Positions 33,525 through 51,253 of a DNA stretch of 64,000 bases are shown in pieces. Each line of letters starts with the position of its first letter. Position 1 is the first letter of the stretch. The stretch spans positions 4,657-68,656 of the forward strand of contig JBGTUD010000003.1 in NCBI GenBank assembly GCA_041939405.1, in the 5' to 3' direction. The position numbers and the translations under genes were made by a program. The stretch is from Sphingopyxis sp. Its GTDB lineage: Bacteria; Pseudomonadota; Alphaproteobacteria; Sphingomonadales; Sphingomonadaceae. Under the pieces are notes generated by a model. That model saw nothing but the letters and a program-made list of their open reading frames with translations, had not been told where the DNA came from and did no database searches.

Positions 33525-34553
33525 TCACAATTCCCGGGCTTTCGCGGCAGCTCGAACATCCTGCGAACAGGCGAGCGAGATGACGAGGATGTCGTCGCCA
33601 TCCACAACCACCGCGACGTCGTTCATCCCAACGATAGAGACCCGTCGCCCCCCGGCGCGAACTAGGTTGTTACTGCTGCCATGCAGGAAGACGTCGCCGA
33701 CCGCGGCATTGCCCATCTCGTCCTTCGCGGCGAGCAGCTGGACCGCCTGCCAACTGCCCAGATCGGACCAGCCCATTGCAACGGGCACAACCGCAACGCG
33801 ATCGTCCTTCTCCATCACCGCATAGTCGATCGAGTCATTCGGCGCATGCCCGAACTCGCGCGCGTCGGCGTGGATCGCGTCGCGATCCACGAAGCCCGCG
33901 CGAATGGCGTCGACGGCAGCGCCGAAGATCGCCGGACATGACGCCAGCATCGCATCGCGCATGCGTCCGGCGCGGAACAGAAAGATGCCCGCGTTCCAGT
34001 TGTAACCACCGGCGGCAAGCATCCGATTTGCTTCCTCAAAAGGCGGCTTCTCGATGAAACGCTCGACGATGAACCCGTGTTTGGTCAGGGCTTTGCCACT
34101 CGCGATATATCCAAATCCCGTGTCGGGCCGATCAGGTGCGATACCGAAGGTGACGATCCAGTCCCGGTTGGCGAGTTCGACCCCGCTTTCGATTGCGGCG
34201 TGAAAGGCGGACAGATCGAGAATGACCTGATCGCTCGGCATGACGAGCAGCAGCGTGTCGGGGTCTGCCTGCGCGACCGCGAGAGCGATAGCGGCGGCGG
34301 TTCCGCGCGGCATCGGTTCAACAATCAACATAGCGTCGCGGCGACCGAGCTGCTCGCGCACCACCGGGACATGCGCGCCACCGCACAGAATCATCGGCGG
34401 TGCGAAAGATGGCCCCGCCGGAGTGCGCTTGACCGTTTGCTCGAAAAGACTTTCCGAACCTGCAAGCGGCAGGAACTGTTTTGCACGATGCCCGCGGGAT
34501 TCCGGCCACAGCCGCGTCCCCGCACCACCACAGAGAATAACCGGTTGAATCAT
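33525..34553 (-). CDS. manC: Mannose-1-phosphate guanylyltransferase
   Basis: MIQPVILCGGAGTRLWPESR...KQFL, EKP, WNAGIF, SIDYAVME, GWSDLGSW. No PMI domain. Confidence 0.93.
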   Translation of the reverse strand: MIQPVILCGGAGTRLWPESRGHRAKQFLPLAGSESLFEQTVKRTPAGPSFAPPMILCGGAHVPVVREQLGRRDAMLIVEPMPRGTAAAIALAVAQADPDTLLLVMPSDQVILDLSAFHAAIESGVELANRDWIVTFGIAPDRPDTGFGYIASGKALTKHGFIVERFIEKPPFEEANRMLAAGGYNWNAGIFLFRAGRMRDAMLASCPAIFGAAVDAIRAGFVDRDAIHADAREFGHAPNDSIDYAVMEKDDRVAVVPVAMGWSDLGSWQAVQLLAAKDEMGNAAVGDVFLHGSSNNLVRAGGRRVSIVGMNDVAVVVDGDDILVISLACSQDVRAAAKAREL

Positions 34554-34647
34554 CGGGCAGGCTCCGATCCAATCTAGGTTGGCCAGAAAGCACGCCTCTC
34601 CTTGTTTGCGAACATAAGGGCAAAAAAGGGCCGGCTTCAACCCATTT

Positions 34648-34662
34648 TGCTGCATGTGCGAA
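34648..34662. promoter_or_regulatory. TGCTGCATGTGCGAA box (EPS/lasso motif)
   Basis: Related to the boxes at 41531, 51197, 61862 and 61886. Confidence 0.5.
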
Positions 34663-34847
34663 GAGAAACTTGATCGTTCCGATTTTCGCGGCAATATCGT
34701 TAATGTCGGCGCCGCCGCGAGGTGGTCCGAATCCCGGTCGGCCCGACCGATCGGACCCGGGGGGATGTCACGACCGTTTCGGATCTCGATGCTGTCGAAA
34801 GGCCGTGGGTGAAAATGTCCGCGCGTCCATCCCGAAGGAGTTTTCCG

Positions 34848-35597
34848 ATGAAGCAGCTTGTCGCATTCGACCTCGATGGAACGCTCGCCGAAAGCAAACA
34901 GCCACTTGCCGATTGGATGGCCGAGGCAATCGCCAGCCTTTTACAGGTCGCCCACGTCGCCGTCATCTCCGGCGGCGACTGGCCCCAGTTCGACAAGCAG
35001 GTCGCAAGCCGATTGCCGCCCCACGCCGACCTGTCTCGGCTGTGGCTGATGCCCACCACAGGCACCAAGCTTTTCACGCACCGCGGGGGTGCCTGGGCAC
35101 CCGTTTACGCCGAATTGTTCGACGCAGTTCAGAAGCAAGCGATTCTTGATGCCTTCGACGCATCGCTCGAGGCCACCGGGTTCGTTCCCGAGGAGACCTG
35201 GGGGAATCGGATCGAGGATCGCGGAAGCCAGATCACCTTTTCGGCGCTGGGTCAGGAGGCACCGATCCATGCAAAGGAAATCTGGGATCCCGACTTCGCC
35301 AAACGCAAGGTCATCCAAGCCGACCTGCGCACCCGGCTGCCGGGCCTGTCGATCAATATGGGCGGCGCGACGTCGATCGACATCACGCGCGAAGGGGTCG
35401 ACAAGGCCTATGGCCTCAAGAAGCTGCGCGATGCGAGCGGGGTTCCGCTGGAGGCGATGATGTTCATCGGCGACGCGATCTTTCCCGGTGGCAACGACTA
35501 TCCGGCGAAGGAACTAGGCCTCGACACCGTCCGGGTTCGCGACCCCAAGGAAACACTGGCTGTGATCGAAGCCATCGTCGCATGCCAGAAGGATTAG
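34848..35597 (+). CDS. HAD-IIB family, eukaryotic-type phosphomannomutase
   Basis: LVAFDLDGTL, IEDRGSQITFSALG, GGATSIDI, DKAYG, FIGDAIFPGGNDYP. Divergent from manC. Confidence 0.85.
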   Translation: MKQLVAFDLDGTLAESKQPLADWMAEAIASLLQVAHVAVISGGDWPQFDKQVASRLPPHADLSRLWLMPTTGTKLFTHRGGAWAPVYAELFDAVQKQAILDAFDASLEATGFVPEETWGNRIEDRGSQITFSALGQEAPIHAKEIWDPDFAKRKVIQADLRTRLPGLSINMGGATSIDITREGVDKAYGLKKLRDASGVPLEAMMFIGDAIFPGGNDYPAKELGLDTVRVRDPKETLAVIEAIVACQKD

Positions 35598-35608: not shown

Positions 35609-35872
35609 TTAAATCGCGTTCCAGATCAGATATATAACGATCCAGAGTGATAACGAAATGGCCAGTCCGACCAGCCATCCCGACCAGCGGATCGGGTTCG
35701 AGCCAGCCGTCCGCTGGGCCGCATCGATCGTCGAACTACGCATGTCTTGCCCCCGATTGCGGTCCCCAGGGCCAATTGCCGATTCGCCGGTTAAATTGTC
35801 GTGAATATCACGGACGCGCGGCGCCGAATTTGTCCCTTCCCGGGACTCCGGACTGTCGCGCGATCCGTCCAT
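35609..35872 (-). CDS. Small hypothetical protein with a C-terminal transmembrane helix
   Basis: GAGAGGA RBS. Ends WSGWLVGLAISLSLWIVIYLIWNAI. Confidence 0.5.
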   Translation of the reverse strand: MDGSRDSPESREGTNSAPRVRDIHDNLTGESAIGPGDRNRGQDMRSSTIDAAQRTAGSNPIRWSGWLVGLAISLSLWIVIYLIWNAI

Positions 35873-35931: not shown

Positions 35932-37692
35932 TTAGATCGCGATACGGCCGCCGTCCATCCATTCGAGGCTGGGCCGCCTCGAGGTGGTTCGTCCAGCTTC
36001 GAGCCCGATAACATGGTCCGCAGCGGCGAGCATTGCCGGGCGGTGCGTCACGATAACGATGGTCATGTGATCGCGCAGCGATCGCATCGCTTCGACGACG
36101 CGCGCCTCACTCGCATGATCGAGCGCACTGGTCGCCTCGTCGAGGATGAGCAGTTGGGGACGTCGCAGCAACGCGCGCGCAATCGCAATGCGTTGCCGCT
36201 CACCGCCGGAGAGCGCCTGGCCCCGGTCGCCCACGGGGGTTTCGAGTCCCGCGGGTTTCGTCCGGACAAGATCGGCTGCATCGGCAAGTTCGAGCGCTTC
36301 CCACAATCGCGCATCGTCGATGTCCGCGTCGGCAAGCCGGAGGTTGGCGGCAATGCTGTCGTTGAACAGAAAGGTTTCCTGCGGCACCAGCGCGACGTGG
36401 CGCTGCCACAGCGGCATCAGTTTCTGGTCGAGCGCAAGGCCGTCGACGGCGATCCGTCCGCTCGACGGCGGCAACAACCCCGAGATGATGTCGAGCAGGG
36501 TCGATTTGCCGCTCCCGCTCGGGCCACTGATCGCGGTAATCGCGCGGGCCGGGATGACGGCCGAAATGCGATCGAGCGTCGGCATGCCTTCATCGCCATA
36601 GTGAAAACGGATCTGCGAAAGTTCGATACCGCGGTCGAGCCGTATCTCGCGTCCAGCGGGGGCATGCGCCGGTTGCTCGGCGTTTTCGCGACAGGTCTTG
36701 AGAAGGTCGACGACGGCGCTGACCGGCCCGAGGCTGGCGGCCAGTTCCTGACTGACCGAGTGAAGCGCCATGATCCGCGGCGCGAGCCGCATGAACAGAA
36801 AGAGCATTGCCAGAAGCACCGGCAACTCCATCGTCTGGAAGGTGAGCGCGACGAAGATGAAGCTCGCGACGGCGATCGCGGTCAGCGTTTGGTATATGGT
36901 CGCGCTGCGCGCGCGCGCCGAAGCAAAGCGGATATTGTGACGATAGATACGGAACAGCACATCATCCATCGCGGCGAGATGCTGCTTTTGCAAACCGAAA
37001 AGCTTGGCCGTGCGCAGCCCCCCGAGGAATCCGTCGACGAGCCGGAATTCGTCGCGCCGTTGCCGGCCGACAGTCTGGCCATGCTCGAACGAGCGCCGCC
37101 GGGCGCGGTAGGTGAAAGCGAAAACCGCAACACCGATCACGATCGCCGCGAGCGTCATGCGCCACGATATCGCAAGCGACGCGAGCGCGAATATTGCCGC
37201 CATCAACGCCGACTGCACGAGTTGGAGCAACTGGTGCGTTGCCAGCAGCAGCCGGTCGATGTTCGACGTCAGTATCTGGGCGAGGTCGGCCGTGCGATAA
37301 CGGCCGAGGACCTGCCAGCGCGTCAATGTCACCGCCTTGAACAAGCGGTGCTGGAAATCGGCGACAAAGCCGAACATGACGCGCGCATTATAGCGCTCCT
37401 TGGTTTCAAGAAGCAGCGAACGGATTACGGTCGCGACCACGAAAGCGCCGATGATCATCGGCAGCGTGATCGCCACGGTCTGGTCGGTCACGACAAAGGG
37501 GATGCGGTCGAAATCGATAAGAATTTCCTGACGCGCCGGATCCAGCAACCGAAGCAGCGGGATCAGCAGCAGGATCGAGACGATCTCGCTGAGGCTGCCG
37601 AGAGTCTGGAGGATCGCAGCCTTTGCAAAGGCGCCACGGGTGCCCGCCCAGACCAGCCGAACGAAATCGGCTATGCCGTCATGCGACCGCAT
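35932..37692 (-). CDS. ABC exporter (fused TMD-NBD), lasso cluster D protein
   Basis: N-terminal TM region, GPSGSGKS, LSGGERQR, ILDEATSALD. Start MRSHDG overlaps the kinase end. Confidence 0.92.
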   Translation of the reverse strand: MRSHDGIADFVRLVWAGTRGAFAKAAILQTLGSLSEIVSILLLIPLLRLLDPARQEILIDFDRIPFVVTDQTVAITLPMIIGAFVVATVIRSLLLETKERYNARVMFGFVADFQHRLFKAVTLTRWQVLGRYRTADLAQILTSNIDRLLLATHQLLQLVQSALMAAIFALASLAISWRMTLAAIVIGVAVFAFTYRARRRSFEHGQTVGRQRRDEFRLVDGFLGGLRTAKLFGLQKQHLAAMDDVLFRIYRHNIRFASARARSATIYQTLTAIAVASFIFVALTFQTMELPVLLAMLFLFMRLAPRIMALHSVSQELAASLGPVSAVVDLLKTCRENAEQPAHAPAGREIRLDRGIELSQIRFHYGDEGMPTLDRISAVIPARAITAISGPSGSGKSTLLDIISGLLPPSSGRIAVDGLALDQKLMPLWQRHVALVPQETFLFNDSIAANLRLADADIDDARLWEALELADAADLVRTKPAGLETPVGDRGQALSGGERQRIAIARALLRRPQLLILDEATSALDHASEARVVEAMRSLRDHMTIVIVTHRPAMLAAADHVIGLEAGRTTSRRPSLEWMDGGRIAI

Positions 37693-38611
37693 GGTCGCGC
37701 CTGTCGGCCGGGCAGAGGAAGTCAGCAAGCTCGGGAAGTGCGTCGAGGTCGTTGCGGACGATAAGCCGCCCGACACGCGCGCTCCGCGCGAGCGTGGCCG
37801 CCTTCGCAAACAGCGCCGCGGCCTCCCCTCCGCCCATTGCGGCCCTTCCTAGGCGCGGGAAGTAGGAAAAACGGATAAGCGCCCGAAGCGCATCCGCCGC
37901 AGCGAACGCCCGGTATTCATTCGCGGCACCGCGATCAAGGACATGGACGCGGCCAAGCGGCAACGGCCAACGCGGGTTTGTACGCGCCAGCCGGAAGCGG
38001 ATTTTGCCGTTCGTGAAGAGCCCGTCGGACGGCTCGACGACATAGCCTGGCACAGGCCCGAACCGCGTCTGCATATCGGCGTCGAGCTTCATTGCCTGAT
38101 AGCCTGCGGCGACGACAGGCGCCCCCGCCCCGAGGCGAATCGCGACGACATCGTCGGCCACGAGCCGGAAGCCGCCTGCAACCAGGCTGGCAGCCGTGGT
38201 CGACTTGCCCGCCCCCTTGTCGCCCAGAAATATGGCCGCCTCGCCATCGATCTCGATCGCACTGCCGTGCAGGACCAGATAACCGCGCCGGTGTAGCAGG
38301 ATTGCGAGCACCGGCCCGAGCAGCGGCAAGGCCAGAAGGCGCTCGTCGAAGCCCGGATCGAGATCCACCGCAATCTCCCTCCCGCCTGCGCGCACGAGGA
38401 AGACGCCCACGTTGCGGAAACGAAGCAGGTCCCCTTCGGGCAGCACCGCGAAATGCCGGAATCCTTCGAAGGGCTGCGAATAGCGGGAAAGATCGGCCGC
38501 GACGATGTGGAGATCGATCTCGCCTGCCGAACAGATGTCAGCCTCTTCCAGCCGGAAATCGGAGCATACCGCCAGATCGTAAATCCGGTACAGGAAAGCT
38601 CCGCTGCTCAC
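37679..38611 (-). CDS. HPr-kinase-like lasso peptide kinase (PadeK/SyanK type)
   Basis: LHGSAIE, Walker A GDKGAGKSTT, LVADD. Coupled to the cyclase by a 4-nt overlap. Confidence 0.85.
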   Translation of the reverse strand: MSSGAFLYRIYDLAVCSDFRLEEADICSAGEIDLHIVAADLSRYSQPFEGFRHFAVLPEGDLLRFRNVGVFLVRAGGREIAVDLDPGFDERLLALPLLGPVLAILLHRRGYLVLHGSAIEIDGEAAIFLGDKGAGKSTTAASLVAGGFRLVADDVVAIRLGAGAPVVAAGYQAMKLDADMQTRFGPVPGYVVEPSDGLFTNGKIRFRLARTNPRWPLPLGRVHVLDRGAANEYRAFAAADALRALIRFSYFPRLGRAAMGGGEAAALFAKAATLARSARVGRLIVRNDLDALPELADFLCPADRRDHAVA

Positions 38612-40485
38612 GCCGCTTCCTCGATATAGGGGGGGCGTTCAGGCGGATTCTCCATCGCAAGCCAGCGCGACAGCATCACCGCGCGCCAAAGGCGCATCAG
38701 CGCCGTGCCGTCAAGTTCTCCGCTATTCCGCAAATCGGACCAGTCGGCGCGAAGTTGGGCAAGGTTGCAATAGGGCAGGATCAATTCGGGCCGCTTTAAA
38801 ATCGCCTCGTCGATAACGTCGCGATCGAACCGGAGCAGCGACTGCCGCAGATGGGTCGCGAAATCATGCTTGTCCGTCCGTAGGCGGATCTTTTCCGGCA
38901 ACACACCTTCCATCGCATCACGAAGCACGGAGCGGGGCCGGCCGTCCTTCCATTTTTCCTGCGCCTCGACCGTCACGCAGAAGCGGACGACATCGAGGTC
39001 GAGGAAGGGCATCCGGAGTTCGACGCCGGCGCAGGCGGCTTCGATGTCGATCACCTCGAGCGAATGGGCAAAGATCGGCGATGCCAATTTTTTGAGATGC
39101 GCCTGCTGCTCGATCGGACGCTCACGGCCGTCGGGGGCGGTGACCAGCGGATCGCGCTGGACGGAAGTGCCGCGGACGAGGAAGCTGGCCGGTAGGTCGA
39201 GCAGCTTGCCGACGCTGCGCCGGATGCCTCGCCGCCAGACGAGACGCCGGAAATGCGGCCATGGCGCCCCTGTGACGTGACGAACGGCCTGCAGCTCCCT
39301 CCACAGCTTGCGCCACTGGCCCGACGCGGCCAATTCGCCGAACAGCCCACCGCCATGCGAGATCACCTCGTCGCCGCCGTGCCCATGCAGGATGACGCGC
39401 CCGGAGAAATCTGCGGCCACCTGTTTCAGGAAATAGCGGAAGATGCCGCCATTCGGGCCGGCCGGGGGCTGGTCCTGCTCGCCCAGAATCGCATCGGCGT
39501 GGCCAAGACCGGAAACTCCGCTGCAATCGACCGTGGTATGTCCGATCGCATATTGGTCGACCACCGACGCGATGAAGTCGCGTTCATCCTCGACGTCAGG
39601 GTCGGAGAATATCAGTGAGAAAGCCTGCACAGGCGGATCGCCATCGGCGCGACCTGAAGCGAGTGCGCTAACGATCGAGGACGAGTCGAGCCCCCCGCTG
39701 AGGAAGGATCCGACCGCCGAATTGCCGCGAAGGCGGCGACGGATCGCCTCGACGAACAGCGCGCGGAATTCGCCGCCCACATCCTCGCGCGCGACCGGTG
39801 CCTCGGTATCGAGACGCCAGTAACAGTGCGTCGCGAATGCATCGCGCCGGGCGATCGCATAATGGCCTGGAAGCAGGCGGTAGATGTCCTCGAAAAAAGT
39901 ACGGTCGCGGTCAGCCTCGGGAAAGTCTCCCCGGACAAAATCCGCCATCGCCGCATCGCGCCGTTCCCCCGGGATGTCGGGGCGCATCGCCAGCAGCCCC
40001 TTGATCTCGGACGCAAACAGCAGTTCGTCGTCGATGACGCGATAGTAGAGCGGCTTTACCCCGATATGATCGCGCGCCAGATAGACCTGCTGCTTTATGG
40101 GATCCCAGATCGCGATGGCGAAATCCCCCAGCAGATGTTGCGCCAGCTGGTCGCCAAGCGAACGATAGGCCGCGAGGAGCAACCGGGTATCGGACATGGC
40201 GTCCGGCAGCGGCGCATGCAGTCCTGCCGCGTCCCGCAACATGGCCCGCAATTCGTCGCCATTGTCCAGCCGGCCATCAAAGGCGACAACATAGCCATCG
40301 TCGTCGAGCGCGAAGCCGTTGCACCCTGTGTCAAGCAAACCATGGCCGATGAACACATATTCGTCATGGTAACAGGACATGCCGTCGCGGCAGCGATGGG
40401 CCATCGCGTCGAGCGCCCGCTCGAGCATCGCTACGCCGCGCGCACCATCGCTTTTGGCAGGGACGATGCCGCATATACCGCTCAT
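38608..40485 (-). CDS. Lasso peptide cyclase (C protein; asparagine-synthetase-like)
   Basis: MSGICG lacks the Cys2 of a true AsnB. RDHIGVKPLYY, LSGGLDSS, GHGGDE, RMPFLD. Adjacent to B1/B2. Confidence 0.92.
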   Translation of the reverse strand: MSGICGIVPAKSDGARGVAMLERALDAMAHRCRDGMSCYHDEYVFIGHGLLDTGCNGFALDDDGYVVAFDGRLDNGDELRAMLRDAAGLHAPLPDAMSDTRLLLAAYRSLGDQLAQHLLGDFAIAIWDPIKQQVYLARDHIGVKPLYYRVIDDELLFASEIKGLLAMRPDIPGERRDAAMADFVRGDFPEADRDRTFFEDIYRLLPGHYAIARRDAFATHCYWRLDTEAPVAREDVGGEFRALFVEAIRRRLRGNSAVGSFLSGGLDSSSIVSALASGRADGDPPVQAFSLIFSDPDVEDERDFIASVVDQYAIGHTTVDCSGVSGLGHADAILGEQDQPPAGPNGGIFRYFLKQVAADFSGRVILHGHGGDEVISHGGGLFGELAASGQWRKLWRELQAVRHVTGAPWPHFRRLVWRRGIRRSVGKLLDLPASFLVRGTSVQRDPLVTAPDGRERPIEQQAHLKKLASPIFAHSLEVIDIEAACAGVELRMPFLDLDVVRFCVTVEAQEKWKDGRPRSVLRDAMEGVLPEKIRLRTDKHDFATHLRQSLLRFDRDVIDEAILKRPELILPYCNLAQLRADWSDLRNSGELDGTALMRLWRAVMLSRWLAMENPPERPPYIEEAA

Positions 40486-40487
40486 CG

Positions 40488-40919
40488 CTATTCGATCCTC
40501 AAGAGCGGACGAAAGGCAGCAATATTTTCGCTGTCCCCCCCGATCACGACTTTGCCATTGCTCGTCAGCCAGGCATGAGCGCCGAAAGTCGTGCCGCTGC
40601 GCCGGACGCCGACTTCAATCTCCGATCCATAGCCTCGCAGCATCAGCATCAGCTTGACCGCCAGCGCCTGAACAAGACAGGTCGGCTTTGGCACCAGCAC
40701 CGAAGCCGCGCGAACGGCGGTAGCAACACGCAGCGCAAGCGCATCGCTCGGAAAAGGCCGGGGTGGATGGAGCGACGCGCGACGGATCATCCGGTTATAG
40801 CCCGCAAGGGAGAGGGAGAGCCTCACAAACCACAAAATTATTAACGACAGTAAAAGCAGCCATTTGTCGCGCCACAGGGCCGCGATGCGTCGGCTGCCAT
40901 TCCATTTTCCGCTACGCAT
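40488..40919 (-). CDS. Lasso peptide leader peptidase B2 (transglutaminase-like)
   Basis: PTCLVQAL (Cys), IEVGVR, GAHAWL (His). Confidence 0.92.
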   Translation of the reverse strand: MRSGKWNGSRRIAALWRDKWLLLLSLIILWFVRLSLSLAGYNRMIRRASLHPPRPFPSDALALRVATAVRAASVLVPKPTCLVQALAVKLMLMLRGYGSEIEVGVRRSGTTFGAHAWLTSNGKVVIGGDSENIAAFRPLLRIE

Positions 40920-41178
40920 CGACCGAGACGATCAGGCCGGCAGAGGAAAGTTTATCGAGCAACGCCGCGACGTCGGCGCGCGCGACCGCATCGGAGACAT
41001 CGTAATTGCGGGTCACCGCACCGCAGATCTCGTCGGCGCTCGCGCCCTCGCGCAGACTGTCCCAAACGAATGGCCCGATGCCCGAGAGGCAATAATAGAT
41101 GTTCGCCTGCGTATCGAGCAGCGCAGTCACCCCGTCGAGATCGCTATAGACCGCCGAAGGGCTCGCTATCCATTTCAC
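40912..41178 (-). CDS. Lasso peptide B1 / PqqD-family RiPP recognition element
   Basis: AGGAGG RBS then GTG 41178. LLD...YYCLSGIGPFVW...YDVSDAVARADVAALLDKLSSAGLI. Confidence 0.9.
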   Translation of the reverse strand: MKWIASPSAVYSDLDGVTALLDTQANIYYCLSGIGPFVWDSLREGASADEICGAVTRNYDVSDAVARADVAALLDKLSSAGLIVSVDA

Positions 41179-41199
41179 GTCTGTCCTCCTGACGGATGC

Positions 41200-41286
41200 G
41201 ACCCGATCAGGTAATGGAGGACGGGCGACCCTTCCGCCCCCCACTATTTCGGTATCCCAAACGATCCTTCCTTTCCTGAACGGGTC
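41200..41286 (-). other. Long imperfect RNA stem-loop between precursor and B1
   Basis: Arms 41200-41223 (GACCCGATCAGGTAATGGAGGACG) and 41262-41286 are near reverse complements. Confidence 0.6.
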
Positions 41287-41434
41287 AGGAGAAGGTGAGG
41301 TCGCTGAAAGGGGTGCCCGAGGGAAAATCGGCGTCCAGATTGGACCCCGATGCGCCGCCGAGAGTCACTTCTTCGAAAGAACCGACTTCGACGAGTTCCG
41401 GCTTCGTATAAGCCGATTTCGGAAGTGTATGCAT
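41285..41434 (-). CDS. Lasso peptide precursor A (49 aa): MHTLPKSAYTKPELVEVGSFEEVTL|GGASGSNLDADFPSGTPFSDLTFS
   Basis: GGAGGG RBS. Leader has YxxPxLxxxG and Thr(-2). Core Gly1...Asp9 with a C-terminal Ser. Directly upstream of B1-B2-C. Confidence 0.93.
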   Translation of the reverse strand: MHTLPKSAYTKPELVEVGSFEEVTLGGASGSNLDADFPSGTPFSDLTFS

Positions 41435-41683: not shown

Positions 41684-42829
41684 CTAATTCCGCGAACGCG
41701 AGTCGAACCCTGCCTTGCGCCGCAGCCACCGACCAATCCGCCCCGCGACGCCCGATGTCCCTGCCTCCGCTGCGCCATCGCGCGAACTGTCGGACAGATC
41801 GTAACCAAGCTCGGCGGTCCAATAGCTTGGCCGCATCGATATGAGATAATGACTCATATTCTTGATGGTCGTCCCGAATTTTGTCGCTTCCAGCTCATTT
41901 GCGCCGCCGCCGATCATGGCTGCGAGCGAGGATCTGACCAGTATCGATCGTCGCCCGTAACCCCGCTCAACCGGTGCCGCCGCTGAGGGCATAAACAGCA
42001 GATCGCCCAGCCGGTCCGCTACGCGCACCGCGACCGACGGCGCGGTTTCGCCGGCCTCGGAACGGACAAGTTCATAGTCGATCAGCCATTTCAGACGCGA
42101 CCAGCTATGCAATAGTCCGTGGAGAGCCAGATAGGAGCGGAGTGCGCCGCCTGTCAGTGTCAGCATCCGATGCTGGTCGAAGAGGTCGATCATCTCAAGC
42201 TCGCCCAGGTCGACTTCGGCGCACAGCGGGACATTGTCGAACAAGCGATAATGAAGCTCGACGATCGTGCGACGGGTTCGATGGATATAGACCCAGTCTT
42301 TGTGCGACCGGCACCAGCGTTCGATCTGTAGTTCGTCGAGGAGAGGGTCGGGCTCGACACGTGCATAATCCATCGCCGCGAGCAGCCGGTCGCAAGTCGC
42401 GATCTGCGTCGGATCGATCAGCAGGTCGATATCGTGATTGGTCCGCCAGCCAATCTTGCCGAAACACAGCTGCGACAGGGCGAGCCCTTTGAGCAATATG
42501 GGTGCCACCCCCTCCCCGCCGAAGCGCGTGCATATCCGCTTGAGTTCGGCAAGCGACGCGAGTTCGGCAAACGTCGCAGCGCGGATCGCCCCTTCGAGGC
42601 TTGCCTGCGTCGCCGCATCGACGGCCGCGCCCGTGCCCTCCATCCAGCCCAGCGCGCGCAGCCGGTTGGCAAAGAGCGGCAGGACGCGGTGGCGCTCGGC
42701 ATATTCGACAAGCCTTGGCCATCCGCCGACGCCGCCGGCACGGTGCATCTGTGCCTCGACAGCGCGGACATCGGGAACGCCGCGCGGATTTATCACTGCG
42801 AGCAGCGCGAAAAAAACCTCGTCACGCAT
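41684..42829 (-). CDS. Nucleotidyltransferase family protein (NTP_transf_5 type, lasso-associated)
   Basis: AERHRVLP, ILLKGLALS, R...DIDLLI, IVELHYRL, H...HSWSRLKWLID. Confidence 0.87.
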   Translation of the reverse strand: MRDEVFFALLAVINPRGVPDVRAVEAQMHRAGGVGGWPRLVEYAERHRVLPLFANRLRALGWMEGTGAAVDAATQASLEGAIRAATFAELASLAELKRICTRFGGEGVAPILLKGLALSQLCFGKIGWRTNHDIDLLIDPTQIATCDRLLAAMDYARVEPDPLLDELQIERWCRSHKDWVYIHRTRRTIVELHYRLFDNVPLCAEVDLGELEMIDLFDQHRMLTLTGGALRSYLALHGLLHSWSRLKWLIDYELVRSEAGETAPSVAVRVADRLGDLLFMPSAAAPVERGYGRRSILVRSSLAAMIGGGANELEATKFGTTIKNMSHYLISMRPSYWTAELGYDLSDSSRDGAAEAGTSGVAGRIGRWLRRKAGFDSRSRN

Positions 42830-43766
42830 GACACTTCCCCAAGCGCGCGCTCATGACCAGGGGATGATGGTCGGACCAGATTTCGGGCCCGCGCGACAGG
42901 CCAATCACATCGATACAACCCCGCGCGTAAATATTGTCGATCGGAAGCATGGCACCCGGCCCCGCCGTCGGCCAGGTCGGTGTGGCGCGGCTCATCAAGC
43001 GCACGTCCATGTCGACCGCCAGGCGGTTCATCGCGAAGCTCCATGGCACATTGTTGAAGTCACCGGCGACAATCTGATTGCTGCTCGGCCTTGACGCCAC
43101 GTCGGCCAGTTCGCGCAGCCGCAATGCCTGACGCCCCAGCGGCCATGGCCGCGGCATATGCGCCGCCGTAAGGGACAGGTCGCGGCCGTTGCGTCGGAAA
43201 TGCGCGGTCAGGGCCGAAATCGACTTGCGGTTTTCCGCATCGCCCCGGGCGTGAGGGGTCACAGCGCGCGCGGGTGTTCGCGACAATATCAGCGTCGAAC
43301 AGCTTCCATCGCCGCGACAGTCATATTGATGGGGATAGTGCGCTTTCAAAAGGCGCGATGCCGATCCGGGCCCGTCACGCGCTTCGAGCAGGATGATGAA
43401 ATCGGGCGATTGGCTCTCGATCCATCGCGCGACTTCTCCCTGATCCGGGTTATCCTTGTTCACATTGAAGCTGACGATTCGGAAGCTGTCCCCCCCTCGC
43501 GCTACGAGCTTCGGCCTGTCCCATAGCGGACGAAAAATGAGAAGAGCGAAGGCAGCGTAGCAGACCGCAAGCGTCGCCATGACGATCGCATGCGCCCGGC
43601 GCCCATCCCGCCAACAACGCCAGAAGCGATAGAGAAGGTAGAAGAGTGCAGGGCCGATCCACGCCGGCGCGACGATATTGATGCTATCCAATATCTCGAT
43701 ATCCGCGCCCAGAAATGCGCCGAGCAGTAACAGGGCAAGGATCGACGGGCCGGCAAAACCGGCCAT
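42822..43766 (-). CDS. Membrane-anchored endonuclease/exonuclease/phosphatase (EEP) family protein
   Basis: N-terminal TM helices, IVSFNV, LLEA, AGDFN, PIDNIY, SDHHP. 8-nt overlap with the nucleotidyltransferase. Confidence 0.85.
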   Translation of the reverse strand: MAGFAGPSILALLLLGAFLGADIEILDSINIVAPAWIGPALFYLLYRFWRCWRDGRRAHAIVMATLAVCYAAFALLIFRPLWDRPKLVARGGDSFRIVSFNVNKDNPDQGEVARWIESQSPDFIILLEARDGPGSASRLLKAHYPHQYDCRGDGSCSTLILSRTPARAVTPHARGDAENRKSISALTAHFRRNGRDLSLTAAHMPRPWPLGRQALRLRELADVASRPSSNQIVAGDFNNVPWSFAMNRLAVDMDVRLMSRATPTWPTAGPGAMLPIDNIYARGCIDVIGLSRGPEIWSDHHPLVMSARLGKCHA

Positions 43767-43838
43767 TTTTCGCCGAGACTTGCGGTGGGGGCCGTGCCCC
43801 TTCCCTATTTTCTGCACAGCTAATGATGCTTCAGCTTT

Positions 43839-43854
43839 TTGTGCATTGCAACAT
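43839..43854. promoter_or_regulatory. TTGTGCATTGCAACAT box in the divergent promoter (lasso tailoring genes vs EPS export operon)
   Basis: TGC-N3-GCA core, nearly identical to 56204-56219. Confidence 0.6.
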
Positions 43855-43902
43855 ATCCGTATTCGGTTACGATCAGCATATCGGTTTTTCGGAGGCGTTG
43901 CG

Positions 43903-45222
43903 GTGCACAAGGCGGCCGGTTTCCAGAAAGCTATCGCCGGCGGTCGGCGGGCCGGCGGACCGGGAAGCGCGAGCTGGCGCCATGTGATCGCTATCGCAAT
44001 TCTGAGCATCGGCTGGGGCGCGCAGACCGCGCTTGCGCAAACGCTCGATGTCGAACCGACCGACGTTGCCGGCAATCGACCACAGCCTGCTTACGACCCT
44101 GTCGGGATCCGGGTGGGCAAGTTGATGATCCGGCCCAGCCTGACCATCTCACCCGATTTTTCTTCCAATCTGTTTACGACCGCCGACGATCCCCGATCCG
44201 ACGTCAGCGTGTCGGTCGTTCCCGCAATCGCAGCGACGATCGCCGAACCCGGCGCCAATTTCTCTCTCTATGGCGAAGCACGCCTGCGGCGCTACGCCAC
44301 CTATGGTTCGCAGGACGACGAACAGTACCGCATCGACGCCAGCGGATCGACGGAGTTATCTTCGGGCCTTGTCCTCAACGCCGGGATCGGCTGGGCCGAT
44401 ACGACCGCGGCGCGCGGCACCGTCGAAAACGACCTCTCGATCGGCGACCCGCTGAAGGTGCGCGAACTTCGCTCGCGCCTGTCGGTGCGCAAGAGTTTCA
44501 ACCGTCTTTATGCCTCGATTGGCTTCTCGGCATCGCGATCGACTTACGACGACGTCCAACTCGAAGACGGCTCGGTTATCGATCAGAGCTTCCGCAACGG
44601 ACGACGCACAGGCGGCACGGTGACGCTGGGTTACGAGGTTAGTCCCCTGCTCGCGCTCGAAACGCGGGCTACTTACGATATCTATCGCTACGGGGATCCG
44701 CGCCCGCTTTTCGACCGGGACGCCAAAAGCTACGCGATCGGGATCGGCTTGCGCTATCAGATCACGCAGCTGCTGACGGCCGAATTCAACGCAGGCATTC
44801 GCCAGCACAGGTTCGAGAACCCCCTGTTCGCGAAAATCAAGGGCGTCGCGCTTTTCGGGCGCCTCCGATGGTATCCGACACCGCTGATCAGCGTTCGCGC
44901 CGACCTGGCGCAATCCACCACGACAAGCACCCTCGACCAGGTGAGCGCCGTGACCGTCACCGATTTCAGCCTCGGTGCCGATTACGAATTTCGCCGCAAT
45001 ATTCTGGTCACCGCCGAAAGCGCGCTTGCCTTTGAAGATTATGGACAGATCGGCCTGGAAGCGAAGCGCCTATCTCTCACCGGGCGCGTCGAATGGAAAG
45101 TGAACCGCTGGCTCCGGCTTGGCGGCTACGCGACGTTCAATAGCCGCTTCGGCTCAGGTTCCGGCCTGATCCGCGATTATTCCGCAGTGCAGACGGGGGT
45201 TCGCATGACGCTCGCGCTCTAA
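43903..45222 (+). CDS. Outer-membrane beta-barrel protein of an EPS locus
   Basis: GGAGG RBS before GTG 43903. Signal-like segment, YDPVGIRVG, amphipathic strands. Upstream of wzc. Confidence 0.8.
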   Translation: MHKAAGFQKAIAGGRRAGGPGSASWRHVIAIAILSIGWGAQTALAQTLDVEPTDVAGNRPQPAYDPVGIRVGKLMIRPSLTISPDFSSNLFTTADDPRSDVSVSVVPAIAATIAEPGANFSLYGEARLRRYATYGSQDDEQYRIDASGSTELSSGLVLNAGIGWADTTAARGTVENDLSIGDPLKVRELRSRLSVRKSFNRLYASIGFSASRSTYDDVQLEDGSVIDQSFRNGRRTGGTVTLGYEVSPLLALETRATYDIYRYGDPRPLFDRDAKSYAIGIGLRYQITQLLTAEFNAGIRQHRFENPLFAKIKGVALFGRLRWYPTPLISVRADLAQSTTTSTLDQVSAVTVTDFSLGADYEFRRNILVTAESALAFEDYGQIGLEAKRLSLTGRVEWKVNRWLRLGGYATFNSRFGSGSGLIRDYSAVQTGVRMTLAL

Positions 45223-45263
45223 TCGACAGCTCACGCCCGCAGAAAATAAGCGAAAGGCACGAA

Positions 45264-47513
45264 ATGACTCTCCCCGCCACGCATGCCCAGCCCCAGGATC
45301 TGGCCAACGGTCCGGGCGCAAGGAGCCTCCGCGAGAGCACCCCCTCGCCAGCCGGCGACCGGCTCAGCCTGTCCAAGCTGATCAACATCCTGCGGCGACG
45401 CTTGTGGCTGGTGATCGCGGTTTCTTTCGCGATATTCCTCATCGGGCTGCTCGTCACGCTGTGGCAACCGAAAATCTATACTGCCGATGCCATCGTCCGA
45501 CTCACGGGATCGAACCGCGAACTGGCGGCAAAGGTCGGCGACCAAAGCGAACTTACCATGGCGGGGGACGCCGACGTCGCGACCGAGATTCAGGTGGTCG
45601 GTTCGCTCGGGATGGCCCGCCAGATCGTCCGCAAATATGATCTTGTCGACAATCGCCGGTTCAATCCCTTCGTCAACCCGCCGACCTCGACGCTGTCGCG
45701 ACTGCTGGGAGGCGGAGGATCGTCGATCGATCCCCGCCGGCTAACGCCCGAGCAGCGGCAAAAGATGGAGGAGCAACTTATCCGCTATCTTCGCAGCGGA
45801 CTGGGCGCAACGCGGATCGGAACATCCTATTCGCTCGCGATTTCGTATCGGCACCATGATCCCGAAATGGCGGCGATGCTGGCCAATGCCTACGCCAATG
45901 AATATGCCCAGTCGCAGGTCAACGAAAAGAAGACTGCAACGTCAGAGGCGATCGCCTTCCTCGGCAACAAGGTGGAGGAACTTCGGGCGCAGGCGACCGC
46001 CGACTTTGCCGAGGTGCAGAACTACCGCATCCGTAACGGCCTTCCCAGCACCACCGGTGCGTCACTCACCGAACAGGACATCTCCGTCTACAACCAGCAG
46101 GCGGCGACCGCGCGGGCCGAGGCGGCGGCCGACGCCGCCCGCCTTGAAACCGCACGCGCGCAGCTTCGTCGCGGCTCGGCGGGAGACGATGTCGGCGAGG
46201 CGCTCGAATCATCAGTGATCTCGGCTCTGCGCGCGCAGCGCGGACAATTGGTGGTCAAGATGGCCGACCTTCGTGTGCGCTATGGCGACCGTCACCCCGA
46301 TCTTCAACGCGCGCGCCAGGAGATGGCCGATCTCGACAAACAGATCCAGGAGGAGATCGACCGCGTCATCTCCAACCTCGAGGCAAAGGCCGCCGTTTCG
46401 TCGCAGCGCCTAGCTTCGCTTTCGGGCACATTGAGCTCGGCAAAAGGACAATTGCTCAACAACAACAAGGCGATGGTCGCCCTCGATGACCTGCAACGGC
46501 GCGCCGAGGCTTCGCAGGGCCTGTATGAATCCTATCTTGCGCGTTATCGCGAAACGTCGGCGAGCAGTGGTACAGAGCGATCGGACGCGCGCGTGCTGAC
46601 CCTCGCGTCGCCGCCCACCATGCCGACCAGTCCCAACATCATCCTCAACCTGCTGTTCGCATCGATTTGCGGCGTGGGACTGGGTCTCATTGCGGCCTTT
46701 GTGGTGGAAATGCAGTTCCGCGGATTGACGACAGCCGCTGACGTCGAGAAGCGCACCGGCCTCCCCTATCTCGGCATGGTTCCGGAAAACGGCACGGCGC
46801 GGCACCATGCGCCCAGCCCGATCGAAACGATCACCAGCATGCCCAATTCGATTCTCGCCGAATCGCTCCGCAACATTCACGCCTCGATTCAGATTCCGGG
46901 GCTTGATCGCGCGCAGGTCATCGCGGTGACGTCGGCGCTGCCGTCCGAAGGAAAAAGCATCACCTCGGCCCTGCTGGGATTGATCTCTGCCCAAATGGGC
47001 CATCGAACAATCGTCGTCGATTGCGACATTTTCCGCCGCGGCCTGTCGCACGAATTCCGGATCGACGAGGGGCCCGGGCTGATCGAAGTCGGTGGCGGAC
47101 CGAACGCGCTCGACCCCGCCATCCGCACGGTCGGCGGAGGATTGCACGTTCTTCCGATTGTGGCGCGCGGCAGCCAGGGCGACCGATTGACCGACAAGGG
47201 TTTGATCCAGGCGGCCGTGGCGCAGCTCAAGGAGCGCTATGACCTGATCATCCTCGACTGCCCGCCGCTGCTGGCAGTTGCCGAAGCACGCGAGATCGCC
47301 GGCCTGTCGGACGGCGTTATCCTTGCGGCAAAGTGGCGTTCGACGTCCGACGACGCGATCGCGACGGCGGCGCGGCTGCTTCCCCCGCGTCTCGCGCACT
47401 ATATGGGGGTCGCGCTAACCCGCGTCGATCTGCGCAAGCAAAACCGCTATGCTCCCGACGATTCGACCAGCTACTACACGCATTATCAGCAATATGTGTC
47501 GGCGCCCGCATGA
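45264..47513 (+). CDS. wzc: Polysaccharide co-polymerase / BY-kinase (Wzc/GumC/ExoP)
   Basis: Two TM helices, periplasmic coiled coil, TSALPSEGKS, IILDCPP, Tyr-rich tail SYYTHYQQY. Confidence 0.92.
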   Translation: MTLPATHAQPQDLANGPGARSLRESTPSPAGDRLSLSKLINILRRRLWLVIAVSFAIFLIGLLVTLWQPKIYTADAIVRLTGSNRELAAKVGDQSELTMAGDADVATEIQVVGSLGMARQIVRKYDLVDNRRFNPFVNPPTSTLSRLLGGGGSSIDPRRLTPEQRQKMEEQLIRYLRSGLGATRIGTSYSLAISYRHHDPEMAAMLANAYANEYAQSQVNEKKTATSEAIAFLGNKVEELRAQATADFAEVQNYRIRNGLPSTTGASLTEQDISVYNQQAATARAEAAADAARLETARAQLRRGSAGDDVGEALESSVISALRAQRGQLVVKMADLRVRYGDRHPDLQRARQEMADLDKQIQEEIDRVISNLEAKAAVSSQRLASLSGTLSSAKGQLLNNNKAMVALDDLQRRAEASQGLYESYLARYRETSASSGTERSDARVLTLASPPTMPTSPNIILNLLFASICGVGLGLIAAFVVEMQFRGLTTAADVEKRTGLPYLGMVPENGTARHHAPSPIETITSMPNSILAESLRNIHASIQIPGLDRAQVIAVTSALPSEGKSITSALLGLISAQMGHRTIVVDCDIFRRGLSHEFRIDEGPGLIEVGGGPNALDPAIRTVGGGLHVLPIVARGSQGDRLTDKGLIQAAVAQLKERYDLIILDCPPLLAVAEAREIAGLSDGVILAAKWRSTSDDAIATAARLLPPRLAHYMGVALTRVDLRKQNRYAPDDSTSYYTHYQQYVSAPA

Positions 47514-48655
47514 CGCCCCCACGGACTGTCATCGTTCATTACTGGCTCGTTGCGATGCGTGGCGGCGAGCGAGTCCTCGAGCGGTTGCTGCGGCTCTACC
47601 CCGGCGCGGATATCATCACCCATGTCTACGACCCGGCGGCCGTTTCGGACTTCATCGCGTCGCACCGGGTGCGCACCACCTTCATTAACGACCTGCCGGG
47701 CGCGAAGAAACATTATCAGAAATATCTCCCGCTGATGCCGCGCGCGCTCGAGCGGATGGATCTCAGCGATTATGATCTGGTGATCAGTAGCGAGTCGGGG
47801 CCGTCGAAGGGGGTTATCGTCCGGCCCGACGCTTTCCACCTCTGCTACTGCCACTCACCGATGCGTTATCTGTGGGACCATTATCATCAATATCGCGCGA
47901 GCGCCGGTCCGCTCTCGCGCGCCGCGATGTCGGCGCTTTTCCCGGCGCTGCGGCGGTGGGACGTCACCTCGGCGCAGGGCATCGACCATATCGTCGCAAA
48001 CAGCCATTTCATCGCGCGCCGCATCCGGAAAAGCTGGGGGCGGACAGCCGATGTCGTTCATCCGCCGGTGGACGTCGGCATGTTTCGAAAATCGGATACG
48101 GTCGGCGACCATTATCTCTGGGTCGGCCAGATGACGCCGTATAAACGCGCCGACCTTGTCGCAGACGCCTTCACCCGGCTTGGGCTGCCGCTGCTGATGG
48201 TCGGCACGGGTGAGCTTGCGGCCGATATCGCACGGCGGGCAGGCGACAATATCCGTATTGTCGAGCGCCTCGACTATGCCGCGCTGCGGCGCGCCTATGC
48301 CGATTGCCGCGCGCTCGTCTTTCCGGCCGAAGAGGATTTCGGCATCGTCCCCGTCGAGGCCAATGCCGCAGGGCGTCCGGTGATTGCCTTCGGACGCGGC
48401 GGGGTGCGCGATTCGATCATCGACCAGCAAACTGGATTATTCTTCGACCGGCAGGAAACCGAATCGCTGATCGCGACGATCGAGCGGTTCGAAAACTGGC
48501 TCCCCGCGTTCGATCCCGACGCCGCGGTCGCCAACGCCCGGCGCTTCGCACCCGAAAATTTCGATGCGGGGATCGCGCGCATTGTCGCGCGCGCGCTGGA
48601 TCTCGCGCCGCCCGCAACCGATTCTGTCGCAGGGCTGATGGAGGCGGTGCAATGA
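47510..48655 (+). CDS. GT4 glycosyltransferase (mannosyltransferase-like)
   Basis: HYWLVAMRGGERV, CHSPMRY, EEDFGIVPVEA. ATGA overlap with wzc. Confidence 0.9.
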   Translation: MTPPRTVIVHYWLVAMRGGERVLERLLRLYPGADIITHVYDPAAVSDFIASHRVRTTFINDLPGAKKHYQKYLPLMPRALERMDLSDYDLVISSESGPSKGVIVRPDAFHLCYCHSPMRYLWDHYHQYRASAGPLSRAAMSALFPALRRWDVTSAQGIDHIVANSHFIARRIRKSWGRTADVVHPPVDVGMFRKSDTVGDHYLWVGQMTPYKRADLVADAFTRLGLPLLMVGTGELAADIARRAGDNIRIVERLDYAALRRAYADCRALVFPAEEDFGIVPVEANAAGRPVIAFGRGGVRDSIIDQQTGLFFDRQETESLIATIERFENWLPAFDPDAAVANARRFAPENFDAGIARIVARALDLAPPATDSVAGLMEAVQ

Positions 48656-50100
48656 CACCGACGCTGATCGGCGTCGCGACGATCCTGCTTGGAGGATGGC
48701 TCCTGCTCCGCCGCGGTCCGATGGAATTGCTCTGTGCCGTCCTCGCATTCGGATTGTTCGATGGATCGGCGGCTATCATTCTGACAAGCCTCGGCGGATC
48801 GTCGATTCCGCCTGGCCGGATCATGCTGGGTTTCCTGATCTTGTCGTGCATCGGTCTGATCAGGAATGACGCTGCCCTGTTCCGCCAGGCGATCGCGGAC
48901 AATGGCTGGTTGGTCATTTTCTGCCTTTACGGCTTTATCGGCGCCTTTCTGCTGCCGCGGATATTCGCGCGATCGATGGAGGTTTTTCCGTTGCGGCCGG
49001 TGGGACTCCAGCACCAGTTCGATACGATCCCGCTCTATTTTTCGTCCCAGAACATTACCACCGCCATATATTTGATCGGTACCGGTCTCGGCGCGCTCTG
49101 TTGCTACATTGCCGTCCTGCGTTCGCAGAAGCTGGGCGCGATCGTAACCGCTGCGGTTTACATTGCCGTCATCCATTCGGCCCTTGGCATTCTGGGCGTG
49201 GCGCTGCGAGGAACACCATGGGATCAGGTCGTCGAATTCTTCCGAAACGGCTCCTATGCGCAGCTCGACCAGCACACCAAAAGCTTCATCCGTATCAACG
49301 GCATCATGCCCGAGCCATCGGTCTACGCCGATTTCGGGCTTCTGTGGTTCATATTGTGCTTTGAACTCTGGCTCCGTCATATCCGCCCGACAGCGACCGG
49401 ACTCGCCGCAGCGTTGATGGCGATCGTGCTGATGCTGTCGACATCGTCGACGGCCTATGTGGGATTTGCAGGCTACGCACTCGTTCTCGCCTGTCGTGCC
49501 GCTCTAATGCCCCCCTATCTTCGCGGCGACAAGCTTATCGCGATCGGCGCCGTTGCGCTGCTCGGCGTCGCCTTTGCCGCGCTGTTGATGATCACATCGA
49601 GCGAGGCGGCACAGGCGTTCGAAGAGATGATACGCCAGATGACGGTCGACAAGGCCAGCTCCGATTCCGGGCTGCAGCGCGCTTTCTGGGCGCGGCAGGG
49701 GCTCGACGCCTTCTTTGCTTCCTACGGTCTTGGCATCGGCGCCGGCAGTTTTCGTTCTTCGAGTATCGCGACCGCCATCCTCGGCGGCATGGGCGTGGTC
49801 GGAATTGTCAGTTTTGCCGCCTATCTTCTGCGCGTCGGATGGCCGCGGCGCCCCACAGACCCGCAATCCGAGGCGGCGGACATCGCCGATTCGATCGGCT
49901 GGGCCGCCATTGCGTCGCTGATTCCAGCGCTGCTCACGCAACCATCGCCCGATCCCGGCGTGGATTTCGGCTGCTTTGCCGGCATCGCCATCGCGCTCAA
50001 GGTGCGGGCGACGATGCTGAACTTATCATCCGAACGGCCCACGGACCTCAAAGATTCAGCAATTCCTCCACCAACTGGCTGGCGGCACGTCTCCAGGTGA
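48652..50100 (+). CDS. Polytopic membrane protein, probable Wzy polymerase
   Basis: More than 10 hydrophobic segments, RINGIMPEPS, SSDSGLQR, YGLGIGAGSFRSSS. Confidence 0.7.
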   Translation: MTPTLIGVATILLGGWLLLRRGPMELLCAVLAFGLFDGSAAIILTSLGGSSIPPGRIMLGFLILSCIGLIRNDAALFRQAIADNGWLVIFCLYGFIGAFLLPRIFARSMEVFPLRPVGLQHQFDTIPLYFSSQNITTAIYLIGTGLGALCCYIAVLRSQKLGAIVTAAVYIAVIHSALGILGVALRGTPWDQVVEFFRNGSYAQLDQHTKSFIRINGIMPEPSVYADFGLLWFILCFELWLRHIRPTATGLAAALMAIVLMLSTSSTAYVGFAGYALVLACRAALMPPYLRGDKLIAIGAVALLGVAFAALLMITSSEAAQAFEEMIRQMTVDKASSDSGLQRAFWARQGLDAFFASYGLGIGAGSFRSSSIATAILGGMGVVGIVSFAAYLLRVGWPRRPTDPQSEAADIADSIGWAAIASLIPALLTQPSPDPGVDFGCFAGIAIALKVRATMLNLSSERPTDLKDSAIPPPTGWRHVSR

Positions 50101-51142
50101 AAGATGCCGATTGCCGCGCCGCGGCGGCACGCAACCCCTCTCGATAATCGTCATCGTCCTTAATCCGGCCGATGGCGGTGGCCCATGCCTCTGGATCGTC
50201 CGCCGGCGCATAAACTGCCGCGTCGGCGCATATTTCGGGAAGCGCACCGTGCGGGGCAACGATCGCGGGGCAACCCGTGGTCATCGCCTCGAGCGGCGGC
50301 AGCCCAAAACCTTCGGTCAGCGATGGAAAGGCGATACAGAGCGCATGGCCGTATAAGGAACGCAGCTCGGCATCGCTTACGCGCCCCGCGAAAACGACGT
50401 TGTCCGGAACCATATGGCCCGCCGCGGCGAAGTCCCCGGCGTGCGCAGAGCCGAACAGCACCAGCCGGACCTGCTTTAGCTCGTTCCGCGAAAAAGCCCT
50501 GAGCAGCAGGCCGACATTCTTGTGGGGCTGCGTATTGGCGAGCGCGACGACAAAGGGGTCGCCGCCGAGCGCGAGACGATCGAGAATCCGATCGTCGGGC
50601 GCCGTCGACAGCACATGATCGACGCCGTTATGAACCACGGCGGTACGATCGAGACCCGCGACGCCGACCCGCTCAAGCTGCTCGCGCGAAAAATGTGACA
50701 CGGTCAATATCCGGCGATGGCGGCGCCCGCTGATCGGCTGGTGCAGCCGGTACCAGATCCGGAATGGACGTGAATAGCTGTCGGGGGCCAGATGCACTTG
50801 CGCATCGTGAAACATCGTAACGGCGTTGCGGGTCAGCATCGGCCCGACGTTGCAGAGGCTGACGACCGTTCTGCCCCGCGCACGCACGGGCAGCGTCAGC
50901 TGTTCCCAGAGGTTTCCGGTCAGGGGTCGGACGATGCGGTACGGCATGCCCATCCGCTTGGCGTTCACTTCCGCATTACGGGGAATCCAGATCATCAGAT
51001 CGATCCGTCGCGCGATTTCCGGGTCCTCATCGATCAGGCGCTTGGCGTGACGGATCAGTTCCTCGGCCACCCGGTGCACGCCCGTGGGGATGCCGGACAG
51101 AAACTTGCCGTTGATGACCACTTTCCGGGGATTTGAAGCCAA
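50048..51142 (-). CDS. GT4 glycosyltransferase
   Basis: INGKFLS..TGVHRVA, WEQ, PHKN, EGFGLPPLEAM. Confidence 0.9.
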   Translation of the reverse strand: MASNPRKVVINGKFLSGIPTGVHRVAEELIRHAKRLIDEDPEIARRIDLMIWIPRNAEVNAKRMGMPYRIVRPLTGNLWEQLTLPVRARGRTVVSLCNVGPMLTRNAVTMFHDAQVHLAPDSYSRPFRIWYRLHQPISGRRHRRILTVSHFSREQLERVGVAGLDRTAVVHNGVDHVLSTAPDDRILDRLALGGDPFVVALANTQPHKNVGLLLRAFSRNELKQVRLVLFGSAHAGDFAAAGHMVPDNVVFAGRVSDAELRSLYGHALCIAFPSLTEGFGLPPLEAMTTGCPAIVAPHGALPEICADAAVYAPADDPEAWATAIGRIKDDDDYREGLRAAAARQSASFTWRRAASQLVEELLNL

Positions 51143-51196
51143 GGCCTGCTCCGTCGTTTCGACTCGCCGATGGCGCGGCGGCGCCTGCCGAGATTA

Positions 51197-51253
51197 TGCT
51201 GCACCTGCGAAATGATGCAACCGCCTGAGCCGAATTATGTTGCAACGCAACAT
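51197..51253. promoter_or_regulatory. TGCTGCACCTGCGAAATGATG plus palindrome ATGTTGC-AAC-GCAACAT
   Basis: The 21-mer is identical to 61886-61906. Perfect 7-bp arms at 51237-51253. Confidence 0.65.

Follow-up and report, generated by a model that had tools for sequence, protein, structure and literature searches.

The DNA analysed here is a stretch of 64,000 nucleotides from Sphingopyxis sp. (contig JBGTUD010000003.1, positions 4,657 to 68,656), called the window below. It carries a lasso peptide cassette of six intact minus-strand open reading frames (ORFs), namely a precursor (A), B1, B2, a cyclase (C), a kinase (K) and an ATP-binding cassette (ABC) exporter (D), in the order given by the original prediction made from the sequence. 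Consecutive genes from B1 through the exporter overlap or abut (Table 1). A gene for a PsmN-like nucleotidyltransferase (N), which that prediction did not mention, shares the strand of A and has its end 250 bp upstream of it. With N counted, the cassette has seven genes in the order N-A-B1-B2-C-K-D. The cluster had been called complete at positions 35932-41434; this call is not supported as worded, since the N gene lies just outside these positions and travels with the cluster (in 34 of 36 loci of its clade, see below). The whole cassette lies inside a Wzy-type exopolysaccharide (EPS) locus of about 30 kb, a setting that had also gone unmentioned and that is the most telling feature of the cluster.

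Table 1. Features of the lasso cassette and of its EPS surroundings in the window (position 1 is the first letter of the window)
Feature	Position	Strand	Remarks
ManC (left EPS flank)	33525-34694	minus	
HAD-type phosphomannomutase (left EPS flank)	34722-35597	plus	
87-amino acid (aa) ORF	35609-35872	minus	no family match; hydrophobic C-terminal stretch
MsbA-like ABC exporter (D)	35932-37692	minus	PF00005/PF00664; likely start 37692, ORF reaches 37809
HprK-like peptide kinase (K)	37679-38611	minus	PF07475; 8 aligned homologs all keep His115, Lys136, Asp153 and Asp154
Lasso cyclase (C)	38608-40485	minus	Asn-synthase fold; SGGLDSS ATP motif intact and invariant
B2, leader peptidase	40488-40919	minus	Transglut_core3; 7 aligned homologs all keep Cys81 and His115
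B1	40912-41178	minus	recognition element for peptides made by ribosomes and modified after translation (RiPP recognition element, RRE), PqqD PF05402; 88 aa from GTG, AGGAGG site
Stem-loop	41211-41248	minus	between A and B1; 13 bp, -20.5 kcal/mol; z -2.09 for the region
Precursor A	41285-41434	minus	49 aa; leader 41360-41434, core 41288-41359; GGAGGG ribosome-binding site upstream
N, NTP_transf_5 nucleotidyltransferase, PsmN-like	41684-42829	minus	PF14907, 123 bits (cut-off 31)
Endonuclease/exonuclease/phosphatase-family (EEP) gene	42822-43766	minus	overlaps N start; likely start 43766, ORF reaches 44075
Right EPS flank, part 1	43678-63098 overall		BBP2 beta-barrel, Wzc, GT4, Wzy-like, GT4, Wzx
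Right EPS flank, part 2	43678-63098 overall		nitroreductase, pyruvyl transferase, GT2, cell-wall hydrolase, NTP-transferase (GalU-like)
Right EPS flank, part 3	43678-63098 overall		cupin, Wza, priming sugar transferase, acyltransferase

Precursor A scored 32.7 bits against the NCBIfam lasso leader model NF033521 (cut-off 19), a model that already names this type of peptide. The lasso-precursor pattern gave a single match across all six frames of the window. The leader of 25 aa contains the YxxPxL motif (YTKPEL) and Thr(-2), and the core of 24 aa starts with Gly1, has Asp at positions 9, 11 and 20, is devoid of Lys and Arg and ends in Ser24; all these residues had been read correctly in the original prediction. 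Position 3 is Ala, and the bulky residues Phe18, Leu21 and Phe23 are plug candidates. The mass of the cyclised core, previously calculated by hand as about 2328.0 Da, was recomputed as 2328.018 Da, and as 2407.985 Da with one phosphate. A phospho-only series had been listed for the mature product. As the PsmN-like gene travels with the cluster, the mature mass is likely above this series. Compared with its ortholog in the genus (L267; the prefixes L and G denote our locus and genome numbers), A shows eight synonymous and two non-synonymous codon differences, which indicates purifying selection. A hairpin follows the precursor stop in most of 16 folded relatives (z -0.6 to -6.1), and the hairpin between A and B1 likely tunes the transcript level of A against that of the enzymes. 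Neither a sigma-70 promoter nor an intrinsic terminator was found upstream of A.

The window has the features of a class II lasso cluster: the precursor leader, the core residues, an RRE with a Cys/His peptidase, and an Asn-synthase-like cyclase with its ATP motif. B2 matched NF033537 at 84.6 bits (cut-off 33). AsnB has its catalytic Cys at residue 2; C has Ser there instead. The best NCBIfam match of the exporter was the HepA family, below cut-off. The kinase keeps the His-Lys-Asp-Asp motif described in PMC9266682 (papers are cited by PMC accession, and the statements taken from them refer to the portions of each that were available). Isopeptidase and FecIR-type partners had been said to be lacking, and family scans of 16 + 29 window ORFs indeed matched neither. 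No signal-peptidase family was matched among the scanned neighbour ORFs. No GC anomaly that would mark a recent insertion of the cassette was seen, and no close kinase was found on plasmids (11 records, 0 covering 80%). When the orthologs within the genus were compared, the kinase, B2, N and the EEP gene were 67-74% identical, versus 82-88% for C, the exporter and Wzc; the precursor was nearly identical. The 87-aa ORF directly after the exporter gene is conserved at 64-76% in all four genus orthologs.

All 8 homologs of N that were aligned keep its KG and D133-x-D135 motifs. Its predicted structure (pLDDT 70, with a poor C-terminal part) has a pol-beta nucleotidyltransferase fold. The best fold match was ANT(2'') (Z 12.7), as reported for PsmN (PMC6993621); weaker matches include FKRP, a polyol-phosphate transferase (Z 7.6). 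A search by sequence for a solved relative of N found none. In PsmN, D134 and D136 are needed for hexose addition and the enzyme acts on the phosphopeptide; deletion of psmK abolishes all hexose species in pseudomycoidin (PMC6993621). N probably acts on the lasso peptide of this cluster. With a PsmN-like gene 250 bp upstream of A, the product is likely, by analogy, a phospho-glycosylated peptide of the pseudomycoidin type. Transfer of hexose-1-phosphate to free Ser by N, in the manner of LicD or FKRP, was considered and rejected on the grounds that the pseudomycoidin kinase deletion removes all hexose species. The cassette repeatedly has a phosphoesterase gene as a neighbour. In the closest relatives it is the EEP gene, kept beside N and overlapping it as in the window; in others it is a calcineurin-like metallophosphoesterase. 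This gene (window 42822-43766, L034:2762-3520, L035:14828-15571, L102:15305-16066 and L151:12754-13557) could remove or recycle the phospho-sugar.

Related loci were retrieved with a kinase alignment as query, a single kinase sequence having retrieved none. Mapping covered 80 genome loci, 36 regions from the family sample and 6 of 80 metagenome loci, the others being mostly short or weak. Kinase matches of at least 120 bits were placed in the tree set after removal of the duplicates L067, L089 and L114, and a quick tree and a FastTree tree were computed. Among named kinases, those of Sphingopyxis come closest (73% and 59%). The window kinase falls in a monophyletic clade of 37 rows, nearly all alphaproteobacterial (SH-like 0.86, FastTree), apart from the Bacillota kinases. 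Among the 36 clade loci beside the window, B1 and B2 were each found in 35, and C, the exporter and N each in 34. N adjoins the cassette in one of three ways: upstream in tandem, upstream and divergent, or between the kinase and the exporter. Readable cores were obtained from 34 loci (29 distinct, 22-30 aa). All 34 end in Ser, and 33 have Asp9. Phe12 and Pro17 are each present in 31/34, Thr16 in 29/34 and Thr22 in 27/34. Lasso-type biosynthesis, the proposed Gly1-Asp9 ring and the addition of phosphate to the C-terminal Ser, all put forward in the original prediction, are supported, the ring by the conservation of Asp9 and the last by the invariant terminal Ser and the intact kinase motif.

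EPS markers accompany this clade. At least one marker was present in 34 of the 36 loci and at least two in 28; the two loci devoid of markers (L148 and L094) are incomplete. The background rate in the genome of the window is 85/753 windows of 20 kb. Wzc proteins beside the cassette are 29-73% identical to that of the window and occur in several different gene orders. A Pfam scan of the flanks of ten clade loci gave several different polysaccharide gene sets. As a control, 40 loci of the same family that carry a lasso B gene with a long frame were used (a chosen, non-random set). None of the 36 without kinase and N had an EPS marker within 10 kb, and three of the four with N did. The other kinase loci of the family had markers in 3/30. 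Of 120 genomes of the genus, four contain a kinase ortholog, and the same four contain the Wzc orthologs (73-87%; the next Wzc is at 37%). Three of these carriers share the same order from ManC to GT4; in the fourth (G326) the contig ends within B2 and Wzc lies on another contig. One of the kinase-negative genomes counted is G397, marked as unpublished, and nothing stated here rests on it alone. Among 300 genomes of the family, Wzc at 53-56% was present only in G174, G175 and G245, the only genomes with a kinase at 48% or more.

The reading that we prefer, at a probability of about 0.65, is that the window holds an intact lasso cluster with kinase and N inside an EPS locus, and that its Gly1-Asp9 peptide would be phosphorylated on Ser24, capped with hexose and exported, and would act together with the polysaccharide and not as an antibiotic. 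B1 would bind the leader, the kinase would put one or more phosphates on Ser24 of the precursor, B2 would cleave after the leader and C would close the ring between Gly1 and Asp9 with ATP; judged by homology, these four steps are highly probable. N, alone or with neighbouring glycosyltransferases, would then add one or more hexoses to the phosphate, and the ABC protein would export the product. A threaded topology is assumed and is a prediction only, the unmodified pseudomycoidin having been isolated as an unthreaded branched cycle (PMC6993621). For an acidic phospho-sugar peptide co-inherited with EPS genes, a role in the matrix or capsule would fit better than an antibiotic role. The functional tie of the peptide to EPS is put forward tentatively, at a little short of an even chance.

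Several observations weigh against this reading. The 438.8 bits (E 4e-131) of C against its best NCBIfam match, the lasso cyclase model NF033535, are under the cut-off of 525. N, which lies 250 bp upstream of A, likely shares an operon with the EEP gene, and its function could be in EPS synthesis only. When placed in a heterologous host, LppN was without effect (PMC13381572). Fourteen of the 36 clade loci are from Mesorhizobium, so the clade counts are not independent and overstate independence. Many Wzc-type EPS loci have no cassette, and co-inheritance of the two may be plain linkage. In an even class-wide sample, the kinase was found in 4/400 genomes, all outside the clade, with no EPS genes within 10 kb and with N in 3/4. 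Among non-clade loci, EPS markers were found in 8/22 from Bacillota and in 1/30 from other phyla, the markers being less sensitive at such distance.

Since the non-clade and class-wide loci are mostly without EPS markers, the EPS tie is a property of this clade, with shared descent as a possible cause. That all clusters with kinase and N sit in EPS loci was ruled out by such clusters without EPS genes. The four class-wide hits (L271-L274) form a kinase clade of their own, in which the kinase is accompanied by a sulfotransferase, C, an RRE and often N and an ABC gene; no precursor was found in them by the pattern used. That C is an ordinary EPS amidotransferase was also rejected, given 439 bits for the lasso cyclase model versus 185 for TIGR03108 and the way in which the presence of C tracks Asp9.

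Of the alternatives, the one that survives best, unlikely as it is, is a stand-alone (poly)phosphorylated lasso peptide, the product foreseen in the original prediction. N and the EEP gene would then belong to polysaccharide synthesis and the cassette would hitchhike in an EPS island. This would agree with the overlap of N and the EEP gene and with the 250-bp intergenic region that parts N from A. Paeninodin, unlike the window, has no N (PMC6993621), clusters with kinase and N exist without EPS genes, and co-occurrence among kin is no proof of function. The presence of N beside the cassette in nearly all clade loci, in three arrangements, argues against it, as does the action of PsmN on a phosphopeptide (PMC6993621).

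Two clade members have no cyclase gene. In L033:10187-12058 (G174) and L036:597-2400 (G157), B2 is directly joined to the kinase, and A, B1, B2, kinase, N and the EPS neighbours are kept. Searches of the two genomes for a cyclase elsewhere gave only generic AsnB-like matches. In the quick tree, L033 branches within a group of loci that have the cyclase (support 99). The contig end truncates the precursor of L033, which, as read by eye and outside the 34 cores counted above, has a core of 14 residues ending in Ser. The products of both loci are possibly linear phosphopeptides processed by B2.

These loci bear on a second alternative, in which the phosphoserine tail would make the peptide a carrier or anchor: N and the neighbouring glycosyltransferases would build a phospho-linked glycan on the tail, or link EPS to it, the ring only stabilising the peptide. 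The invariant terminal Ser and the dispensable cyclase speak for it, together with the fact that the sole readable core without Asp9 is that of L036. Bacilli have linear phosphopeptides with K, N and ABC genes in capsule loci (PMC13381572), and FKRP is among the weaker fold matches predicted for N. On the other side, the best folds of N are those of antibiotic nucleotidyltransferases, and two hexoses at most are reported in PMC6993621. The cyclase-less cases are two lone draft genomes (100% and 86% complete), without a second example in their small genera (1/4 and 1/3 genomes), and may therefore be decaying; the contig of L036 also ends before an ABC gene would show. We consider this alternative improbable. 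Much the same low standing is given to its extension, in which the alphaproteobacterial family would be a peptide arm of EPS biogenesis with the phosphoserine tail as glycan carrier or anchor, the ring would be an optional stabiliser with no fewer than two losses, and a common design would account for the role of the paeninodins and linear polyphosphorylated peptides of Bacilli.

Least probable of all is that the kinase has an internal Ser or Thr as its target, like BsfK (PMC10368454) and LppK (PMC13381572), which act on Ser3, or that the product is a branched cycle like unmodified pseudomycoidin: Thr16 and Thr22 are frequent in the clade cores, but the conservation pattern makes an internal site less likely, Ser3 being present in only 11/34 cores (Ala3 in the window) and no Ser near the N-terminus being conserved, against a terminal Ser in every core, and the plug candidates of the core speak against a branched cycle.

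Other loci were noted during the survey. In L038:8001-10425 (the same as L114, Blastomonas aquatica), a divergent N and a kinase lie in an EPS locus, with precursor, B and C not found nearby; this is possibly an eroded cassette. A Porphyrobacter-type subgroup (L088, L092, L094, L098 and L150) has cores of 29-30 aa that are extended at the C-terminus, with Ser as the last residue, and contain two Cys, of which one lies in the ring and the other in the tail; its products are possibly disulfide-bridged lassos. L098 is labelled Synechococcus and is nested among the Porphyrobacter rows, through bin contamination or transfer. In the alphaproteobacterial L119:6988-19486, a single kinase, C and B2 are surrounded by eight ORFs that are candidates for precursors. 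The genome of the window holds two more lasso clusters (G000:C4:22199-29881 with two precursors and G000:C59:2002-9221 with one), both of the classic sphingomonad type with fused B. Each adjoins a large TonB receptor-like ORF and an ORF of 530-660 aa, a candidate isopeptidase by position and sequence start.

The clade offers a Gram-negative test system whose hosts can be cultured (Sphingopyxis, Sphingomonas ursincola and many Mesorhizobium), and the tight co-inheritance with a defined Wzy EPS locus and the natural cyclase-less variants make the functional question testable. If the peptide carries or anchors a glycan, RiPP chemistry would be linked to capsule and biofilm assembly; if it does not, the product is one more of the pseudomycoidin-like kind.

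Classic sphingomonad lasso clusters of the astexin/sphingopyxin type have a fused B and an adjacent isopeptidase; the window has split B1 and B2 and no isopeptidase family among its scanned neighbours. The paeninodin clusters (PadeK/ThcoK) and the SyanK cluster of Sphingobium yanoikuyae ATCC 51230 share with the window the HprK-like kinase with its His-Lys-Asp-Asp motif and the terminal Ser, and SyanK places this kinase type in sphingomonads (PMC9266682, PMC8498205). The family of the window may already have a partly characterised member, should SyanA/SyanK belong to the clade. The bsf cluster of the likewise Gram-negative Bradymonas sediminis comprises A, B1, B2, C, D, K and N, and differs by Ile(-2) and Ser3 phosphorylation from the Thr(-2) and terminal Ser of the window (PMC10368454). 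Linear polyphosphorylated peptide (LPP) clusters of Bacillota have an RRE, an HprK kinase, a nucleotidyltransferase and an MsbA-like ABC protein in capsular polysaccharide loci, with a SipW-like peptidase and Ser3 in place of the B2 and cyclase of the window (PMC13381572). With B2 and C present and no signal-peptidase family matched among its neighbours, the window does not belong with the LPPs; L033 and L036 are linear analogs of these that retain B2. In Bacilli, paeninodin and LPP clusters co-localise with capsular polysaccharide or EPS genes and are up-regulated together with an EPS gene; phosphorylated lasso peptides and LPPs have no known role according to this 2026 paper (PMC13381572), in whose available portion the string 'proteobacteri' does not occur. 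A literature search, with most subscription papers outside its reach, found no paper on a lasso-EPS link in Alphaproteobacteria.

The window cluster is of the pseudomycoidin type, in its HprK-like kinase motif and C-terminal Ser as in the DxD of its nucleotidyltransferase; this cluster type was already known, and EPS co-location had been published for Bacilli. The psmCAKB1B2ND cluster of Bacillus pseudomycoides comprises the same seven gene types with split B1 and B2, a nine-residue ring, a terminal Ser and a nucleotidyltransferase with an equivalent DxD, and pseudomycoidin had no activity against the three strains tested (PMC6993621). Unlike it, the window cluster is found in an alphaproteobacterial host, has the order N-A-B1-B2-C-K-D and a kinase of a separate clade, and lies inside a Wzy/Wzc/Wza EPS locus.

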